Of a stretch of DNA of 62,262 nucleotides, positions 49,727 to 49,969 are shown one piece after another (within the stretch, counting starts at the first letter, position 1; every line of letters starts with the position of its first letter). The stretch is from contig JAEYRA010000148.1 in the NCBI GenBank assembly GCA_023409755.1, positions 1 to 62,262 on the forward strand, given 5' to 3'. The DNA is from Bacillota bacterium (GTDB lineage Bacteria; Bacillota; Clostridia; Christensenellales; UMGS416). A model generated the notes under the pieces. It had not been told where the DNA came from. It saw only the letters and a program-made list of their open reading frames with translations, and did no database searches. The position numbers and the translations under genes are program-made.

Positions 49727-49969
49727 GTTTACAAACCCACTAGAACGAGCAGAGGGTAACGAACCTCCCGCCGATTCATTCGGCGGGAGGTAAGGAAGCA
49801 CTGGTATGAGCGGTTAAGAAAATCCGCCCGTAGGCGTAACGTACCCATAGAAAACCGTATGAGCGTCGCAGTTTGCGGTCGGTCGGCGACACGTGTGGCG
49901 ACCGACCAAGCCATCATGAGAACAAGCTATCTGAATCGCGGCTGTCGCTACAGCGACGGACGTGAAAGG
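49727..49969 (+). repeat. Copy 6 of the multi-hairpin intergenic element family
   Basis: CCCGCCG-ATTCATT-CGGCGGG+AGG; CGCC-CGTA-GGCG+TAACGTA; ATGAGCG; GGTCGGTCG-GCGACACGTGTGG-CGACCGACC; GAACAAGCTATCTGAAT; CGCGGCTGTCGC-TACA-GCGACGGACGTG (49937-49964) + AAAGG. Confidence 0.9.

Follow-up and report, generated by a model that had tools for sequence, protein, structure and literature searches.

How does a conserved gene come to end, stop codon included, inside a dispersed non-coding repeat? The question is raised by a locus in the window, by which we mean the whole 62,262-nt stretch of DNA analysed here (contig JAEYRA010000148.1 of assembly GCA_023409755.1), from the genome of an uncultured Bacillota MAG (G000). 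A preliminary description of this DNA held that the minus-strand CDS 49948..50949 ends GLSRPSL-TAG within HP4, the right-end hairpin of repeat copy 6, and that the stop codon straddles the boundary between the 5' arm and the loop of that hairpin. Both points held when the ORF was re-derived: it encodes 333 aa and ends ...FLGFLDGLSRPSL*, i.e. ...NLVDSLIAFLGFLDGLSRPSL, inside HP4, and its TAG consists of the last stem base and the first two loop bases (CTA on the plus strand).

The locus was compared with its counterparts in a sister species (G003, 'Bacillota bacterium OH_SBrB_79', JAEWRW01; loci L001 and L002), in two independent metagenome contigs of one strain that is 97%-identical to the window and carries the empty allele (L003 and L036), and in filled-allele contigs from other samples or assemblies (L032-L035); C-numbers denote contigs of G000. 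Over the 333-aa gene, the window and L003 share 97.1% nucleotide identity (dS 0.03), and either of them shares ~86% with G003 (85.8%; dS 0.44-0.47). Because of these identities, 97.1% versus ~86%, the window and L003 are taken as sisters and G003 as the outgroup. The features of the locus (48307-50949) are listed below.

48307..49677, plus strand: TrpB-like PLP-dependent enzyme, the convergent neighbour gene (Pfam PALP; NCBIfam NF009057 TrpB-like, 718 bits; syntenic in G003)
49675-49677, plus strand: TAA stop codon of the TrpB-like gene
49695..49720, no strand: GC-rich terminator hairpin common to both genes, AAAGGCGCGGC-TGTT-GCCGCGCCTTT (terminator scan, fold)
49722..49966, plus strand: repeat copy 6, a 245-nt, four-hairpin non-coding element (filled-versus-empty comparison; BLAST breakpoints against G003 and L003)
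49764..49790, plus strand: HP1, CCTCCCGCCGATTCATTCGGCGGGAGG, the most conserved hairpin of the family (alignment of 26 full-length copies; fold)
49876..49906, plus strand: long internal hairpin, GGTCGGTCGGCGAC-ACGTGT-GGCGACCGACC (copy alignment; fold)
49927..49929, minus strand: second in-frame TAG, seven codons beyond the first (base differing from the family consensus)
49936..49965, plus strand: HP4, right-end hairpin of the element, whose reverse complement is now coding and holds the stop (copy alignment; fold)
49948..49950, minus strand: TAG stop codon of the 333-aa gene (last HP4 5'-arm base and two loop bases)
49951..49965, minus strand: five element-derived codons, Ser329-Arg-Pro-Ser-Leu333, in place of ancestral Arg-Gln-Ala-Gly (orthologue and empty-site comparison)
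49967..49971, no strand: AGGCC, ancestral gene sequence at the right junction (Gly327, Leu328), present in the element-free L001, L003 and L036
49948..50949, minus strand: 333-aa conserved hypothetical protein with a remodelled C-terminus

The terminator hairpin, which has an A-run before it and a T-run after it, is conserved in the empty-site relatives (L001, L003 and L036) and is the target hairpin of the element. HP4 folds with an outer stem (49936-40/49961-65), an inner stem (49942-48/49953-59) and the loop TACA (49949-52), and the 286-nt stretch folds far better than shuffled sequences (z = -6.1). The 333-aa gene follows a Zn-dependent PLC-like gene (window 51046-51825) in both species.

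What the element replaced can be read directly from the relatives. Homology with G003 and L003 stops at 49721 and resumes at 49967 (BLAST breakpoints), and between these points the window has 245 nt (49722-49966) in place of 35 nt, GCTGTGC(T/C)GTT...CCCGCCTGCCGC, which on the minus strand read CGG CAG GCG GG(C/G) and a stop, followed by ~20 nt of spacer, i.e. RQAG-stop. The empty sites thus retain the same terminator hairpin without the element, followed by the segment with RQAG and its stop, and the spacer to the TrpB-like gene measures 66-72 bp in these element-free genomes versus 270 bp in the window. The second contig of the near strain, L036, has the same empty site as L003, and the 35-nt segment is identical at 28/35 positions between the sister strain and the outgroup species. 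The element contributes the synonymous third base of Leu328, the codons for SRPSL, and TAG; Gly327 and the first two bases of Leu328 are ancestral, as AGGCC is kept in the element-free relatives. The earlier attribution of the last seven codons to the element is therefore correct for the stop and SRPSL and not for Gly327 and Leu328, leaving five new codons. Profile positions 2-250 align copy 6 at 49723-49971 with nhmmer, but the profile runs as far as 49971 for the sole reason that an AGGC-initiated hairpin follows in many copies, this hairpin being either a fifth one of the element (GGCTGTCGAC...GTCGACAGCC) or duplicated target. The terminator hairpin begins with AAAGGC, to which the AGGCC at 49967-49971 is possibly microhomologous.

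Orthologues of the protein give the same boundary. The 333-aa protein had 176 homologue matches, and an alignment of 60 orthologues is conserved up to F[LM]D, beyond which the tails are 2-30 aa long and variable in sequence; similarity to the window protein stops at ...FLGFLDGL. The two nearest relatives (96% and 87% amino acid identity) end ...FLGFLDGLRQAG (GLRQAG), and the SRPSL tail was found in 0/120 retrieved homologues, the window's own protein aside. [quoted passage not shown] Of the two possibilities raised in the preliminary description, that the element had replaced the native 3' end or that translation simply read into it, replacement is borne out (an insertion with a loss of 35 nt), and the capacity of the element to remodel protein C-termini is illustrated here by the change from ancestral RQAG to SRPSL.

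The direction of this change depends on whether the empty or the filled site came first. As judged from the alleles compared, the insertion at the copy 6 site is derived, because both the sister strain (L003) and the outgroup species (G003) are empty and one gain in the window lineage suffices; that the element is younger than the gene, and hence mobile, was also the earlier claim and is supported by the same pair. The opposite polarity, with an ancestral element excised from the relatives, is highly improbable. Old insertions do exist, since some family copies are common to both species at orthologous sites (C38/L031, C160/L030); however, the relatives' 35 nt are unrelated to the element and encode RQAG-stop, a sequence that excision cannot create, and the tree (window and L003, with G003 as outgroup) would require two identical losses that also created coding sequence. 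An assembly chimera from a collapsed repeat is harder still to credit as the source of the junction. The repeat does break many contigs of the MAG, and two of the other assemblies end within the element, but 4/4 further assemblies (L032-L035), obtained from different samples and with different assemblers, give an identical gene-element junction, and two of them (L032 and L033) continue across the full element as far as the TrpB-like gene. At least four other samples or assemblies have contigs that encode exactly the same 333-aa protein. Because the junction is identical in four independent assemblies, it is not an assembly artefact.

The age of the insertion poses a further problem, since the closest other copy is 81-88% identical to copy 6 and none exceeds 88% in the G000 assembly or in G003; the absence of a near-identical copy seems odd for an insertion younger than the ~3% strain split. 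The source copy may be missing because it was not assembled, because the allele was imported by recombination, or because the element changes fast. Homologous recombination with an unsampled strain, in which the insertion was much older, would account for the distance to the nearest paralogue, and also for the intergenic haplotypes of the window and L003, which differ far more than the genes do (an unalignable spacer and two loop differences). We nevertheless regard such an import as improbable: the filled-allele assemblies do not differ from one another, identity of the flanking genes to those of the empty-allele strain is 95-98%, and fragmentation of the G000 assembly (3.06 Mb in 208 contigs, many ending in the repeat) explains the missing source copy equally well.

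Other differences were noted among the empty sites. The window sequence from the TrpB-like stop to the hairpin (49678-49694) is unalignable with L003 and L036, yet resembles the spacer of G003, and the stop codon of the TrpB-like gene is TAA in the window versus TGA in L003 and L036; the empty-allele strain appears to have undergone its own rearrangement between this stop and the hairpin. The G003 empty site (L001 6999-7066) contains GAGCGTGTCTAG, which resembles the 5' end of the element (GAGTGTCTAC). This likeness was considered as a trace of the element and rejected, as the closer strain L003 lacks it, and is treated as chance.

Copy 6 belongs to a large family, with 264 matches in G000 (iterated nhmmer, 3.06 Mb, 208 contigs) and many copies in G003 as well. 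Full-length copies are ~250 nt long, and a shorter subfamily starts at profile position 41. Members of this subfamily (profile 41-247) form head-to-tail tandem arrays with a period of ~230 nt and up to five units, found in G000 at:

C186:24479-25628, short-subfamily tandem array
C189:43102-43617, short-subfamily tandem array
C71:1487-2247, short-subfamily tandem array
C4:50886-51317, short-subfamily tandem array

An Rfam scan of the whole window at the gathering threshold matched no family, a tRNA/tmRNA search of the window found none, and a distant blastn of the element against PLSDB plasmids gave no match. The family shares several traits with MITEs: it is non-coding, small (~250 nt) and dispersed in many copies, without a long conserved ORF. 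It is not a classical MITE, because terminal inverted repeats and a short fixed target-site duplication are both missing; the left 35 nt of the consensus against the reverse-complemented right 35 nt gave a best local score of 5, reached by 571/1000 shuffles, and in the filled/empty pairs either a whole hairpin (22-35 nt) or nothing is duplicated. REP/BIME sequences were also considered and rejected, since those are clustered imperfect palindromes of 20-40 nt associated with a RAYT transposase, versus a ~250-nt unit with four different hairpins here. One copy (C38:1540-1756) is 92% identical to its orthologue in the other species (L031), and for the PgeF-like gene beside it the figures are 87.5% over the gene as a whole and 73% for third codon positions. 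These values suggest that at least some of the inserted copies are under constraint at the sequence level.

The insertion habit of the family was studied by comparing 12 G003 loci that carry copies with the orthologous G000 sites, which yielded six filled/empty pairs. Nearly all 26 full-length copies have a hairpin before their left end, as does the copy 6 site. Four of the six pairs (G003 filled, G000 empty) show a hairpin duplication, and the canonical product at these sites (L019/C35, L021/C120, L020/C42, L016/C120) is hairpin, element, and the same hairpin again, with a duplication of 22-35 nt around a canonical element CAGAGTGTCTAC...GACGCGAA, in which the fifth hairpin may be present or absent. 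An identical hairpin-element-hairpin layout is seen at copy 5 in the window (47826-48172), and flank-to-flank hairpin similarity exceeds the shuffle level in 12/26 full-length G000 copies. Long target duplications at hairpins or terminators are also known from insertion sequences, namely IS1630/ISMhom-1 of the IS30 family and IS1272 of the IS1182 family. The present element is like them in sitting directly after a hairpin and often duplicating it whole, and differs in being gene-less and ~250 nt long and in the lack of a duplication at copy 6.

Two further sites in the window also differ between the species. The copies at window 45334-45574 and at L001 1104-1348 (reverse complement) are ~72% identical and lie at the same terminator hairpin, AAAAACCGGGACGCACGTCTGCGTCCCGGTT, where the right flank is ~97% identical between the window and G003 and the left flanks differ; the window carries a decayed duplicate of the hairpin, and G003 an unrelated hairpin. 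The pattern suggests a single hot-spot hairpin, where copies were inserted independently or replaced. Between smpB and the TrpB-like gene (window 47751-48237 versus L001 3528-4495, reverse complement), G003 has an AT-rich 272-aa gene, whose protein gave no match in a tblastn search of all G000; the window has in its place copy 5 with its duplicated hairpins and a 76-nt internal insert (47986-48061), and a copy on C17 has a ~76-nt gap at the position of that insert.

No second hairpin was detected at copy 6, where the flank-flank score of 7 equals the shuffle level. The remaining two pairs offer a comparison: neither has a duplication, and spacer was lost beside the right end of the element, ~10 nt at L023/C194 and ~65 nt at L024/C108, with the right end at L024 lying a few nt after the TGA of a 384-codon NlpC/P60-like ORF. 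At copy 6 the left end lies 4-5 nt after the hairpin stem, the right end is intact, and the flank was removed up to AGGC. By this pattern, copy 6 belongs to the non-duplicating class that loses spacer at its right end.

The most economical account, which we consider very likely, is that insertion beside the terminator hairpin together with a 35-nt loss replaced the tail of the gene in a manner close to neutral for the protein. The element would have entered beside its usual target, the terminator hairpin, and the DNA between its intact right end (...CGTGAA) and the AGGC in codons 327-328 would have been lost, either simultaneously or later. In intramolecular transposition, one element end stays intact and flanking DNA of variable length beside it is lost. 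By analogy, the loss at copy 6 might be an adjacent deletion from the element end; alternatively, the insertion may have been canonical, and a later deletion may have joined the AGGC at the start of the duplicated hairpin (AAAGGCGCGG) to that of codons 327-328. Adjacent deletion and microhomology deletion at AGGC could both give the same product. In either case, translation now runs from Leu328 into the reverse complement of HP4, adds SRPSL, and stops at the TAG of the stem/loop boundary.

Such an early stop is unusual for the family. In the other 25 full-length copies, the reading frame of the gene stays open for a median of 41 codons and closes within 7 codons in only two (2/25). Copy 6 closes the frame at once because the HP4 loop starts with T, a base found at this position in 2/69 scorable copies, copy 6 and C13. 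The loop T probably came with the element, because C13 has the same T and shares the HP4 3' arm. An origin of the TAG by selection after insertion was considered and rejected, the same loop T already being present in C13. The early stop could be due either to chance (~1 in 10) or to a filter that removes long extensions.

The gene itself remained intact and under purifying selection (dN/dS about 0.15-0.16 versus G003), and its product belongs to a widespread family in which Cys265, Cys268, Cys271 and Cys297 are invariant. The protein had no match in Pfam, NCBIfam or PDB sequences, and a Foldseek search of its model against the PDB returned nothing below E = 0.9 (best E = 0.98). In the AF2 model, which is confident (pLDDT 93.5, pTM 0.90), the last helix spans residues 312-329 and residues 331-333 have pLDDT <50. 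The swap from RQAG to SRPSL was probably close to neutral for the protein, given that orthologues differ in the tail beyond F[LM]D and that the model shows residues 331-333 as disordered. At the transcript level, the TrpB-like mRNA would still meet the terminator before the element. The transcript of the 333-aa gene, its stop buried in a hairpin, would have to cross ~227 nt of antisense element before the old terminator.

Repeats that donate C-terminal codons and stops are already documented in enterobacteria and Coxiella; here a different element is involved. RU-1 (ERIC/IRU) is fused to the 3' end of the Erwinia carotovora amidase gene ECA3499, whose native stop is gone and where the repeat is translated, and ERIC/RU-1 3' fusions that supply their own stop occur in Erwinia, Yersinia and Salmonella (Delihas 2007, PMC2759123). 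As in copy 6, a conserved gene has the repeat attached at its 3' end, the stop lies within the repeat, and the addition falls beyond the conserved domain; the ECA3499 extension is ~35 aa, versus four residues swapped for five here. ERIC is without a link to terminator hairpins, unlike the present element, and the present case has sister-strain empty alleles. In Coxiella burnetii, copies of QMITE1 and QMITE2 extend 1-50 bp into the 3' ends of functional genes, and a QMITE2 supplies the C-terminal 33 aa of EnhC in the Dugway strain (PMC5896051). Copy 6 likewise overlaps the 3' end of a functional gene, but QMITEs have terminal inverted repeats and direct repeats, whereas the present element has no detectable terminal inverted repeats and duplicates a whole hairpin or nothing. 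Adjacent deletions are known for transposable elements such as Tn5 (PMC2723962; review PMC9330008), and copy 6 (at least 35 nt lost) and L024 (~65 nt) resemble them in that one element end is intact; as a mechanism, this is an analogy only, because the element has no known transposase.

How often such overlaps arise was addressed by a genome-wide tally, in which 19 ORFs of at least 120 aa in G000 end inside a copy. Most are GC-rich antisense artefacts and three look real: the 333-aa gene, a 584-aa glycosidase-like gene on C160 (...ASRVRR*; 21-nt overlap, same right-end frame as the 333-aa gene), and the PgeF-like gene on C38 (12-nt overlap). In G003, the C160 and C38 genes carry the same copy and end in the same tail; being common to both species, these overlaps are old and stable, but they offer no before/after comparison. 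We hold it rather doubtful that the right end regularly generates adjacent deletions reaching neighbouring 3' ends, with perhaps only early-stop copies surviving, a reading for which copy 6, L024 (a few nt after a stop) and the ancient C160 and C38 overlaps might be cited as tentative examples. If true, C-termini and 3' UTRs in the lineage would be edited systematically by this terminator-seeking repeat rather than by occasional accident.

The protein is probably hardly affected, and the case is a minor instance of a known phenomenon. It is also a clean natural before/after pair, with filled and empty alleles in 97%-identical strains and an outgroup that fixes the direction; it dates one insertion of an abundant hairpin-seeking repeat and shows that its insertions are able to delete flanking DNA and replace the stop codon of a gene. 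The main use of the case would be as a dated event and a junction map for working out how the element moves.
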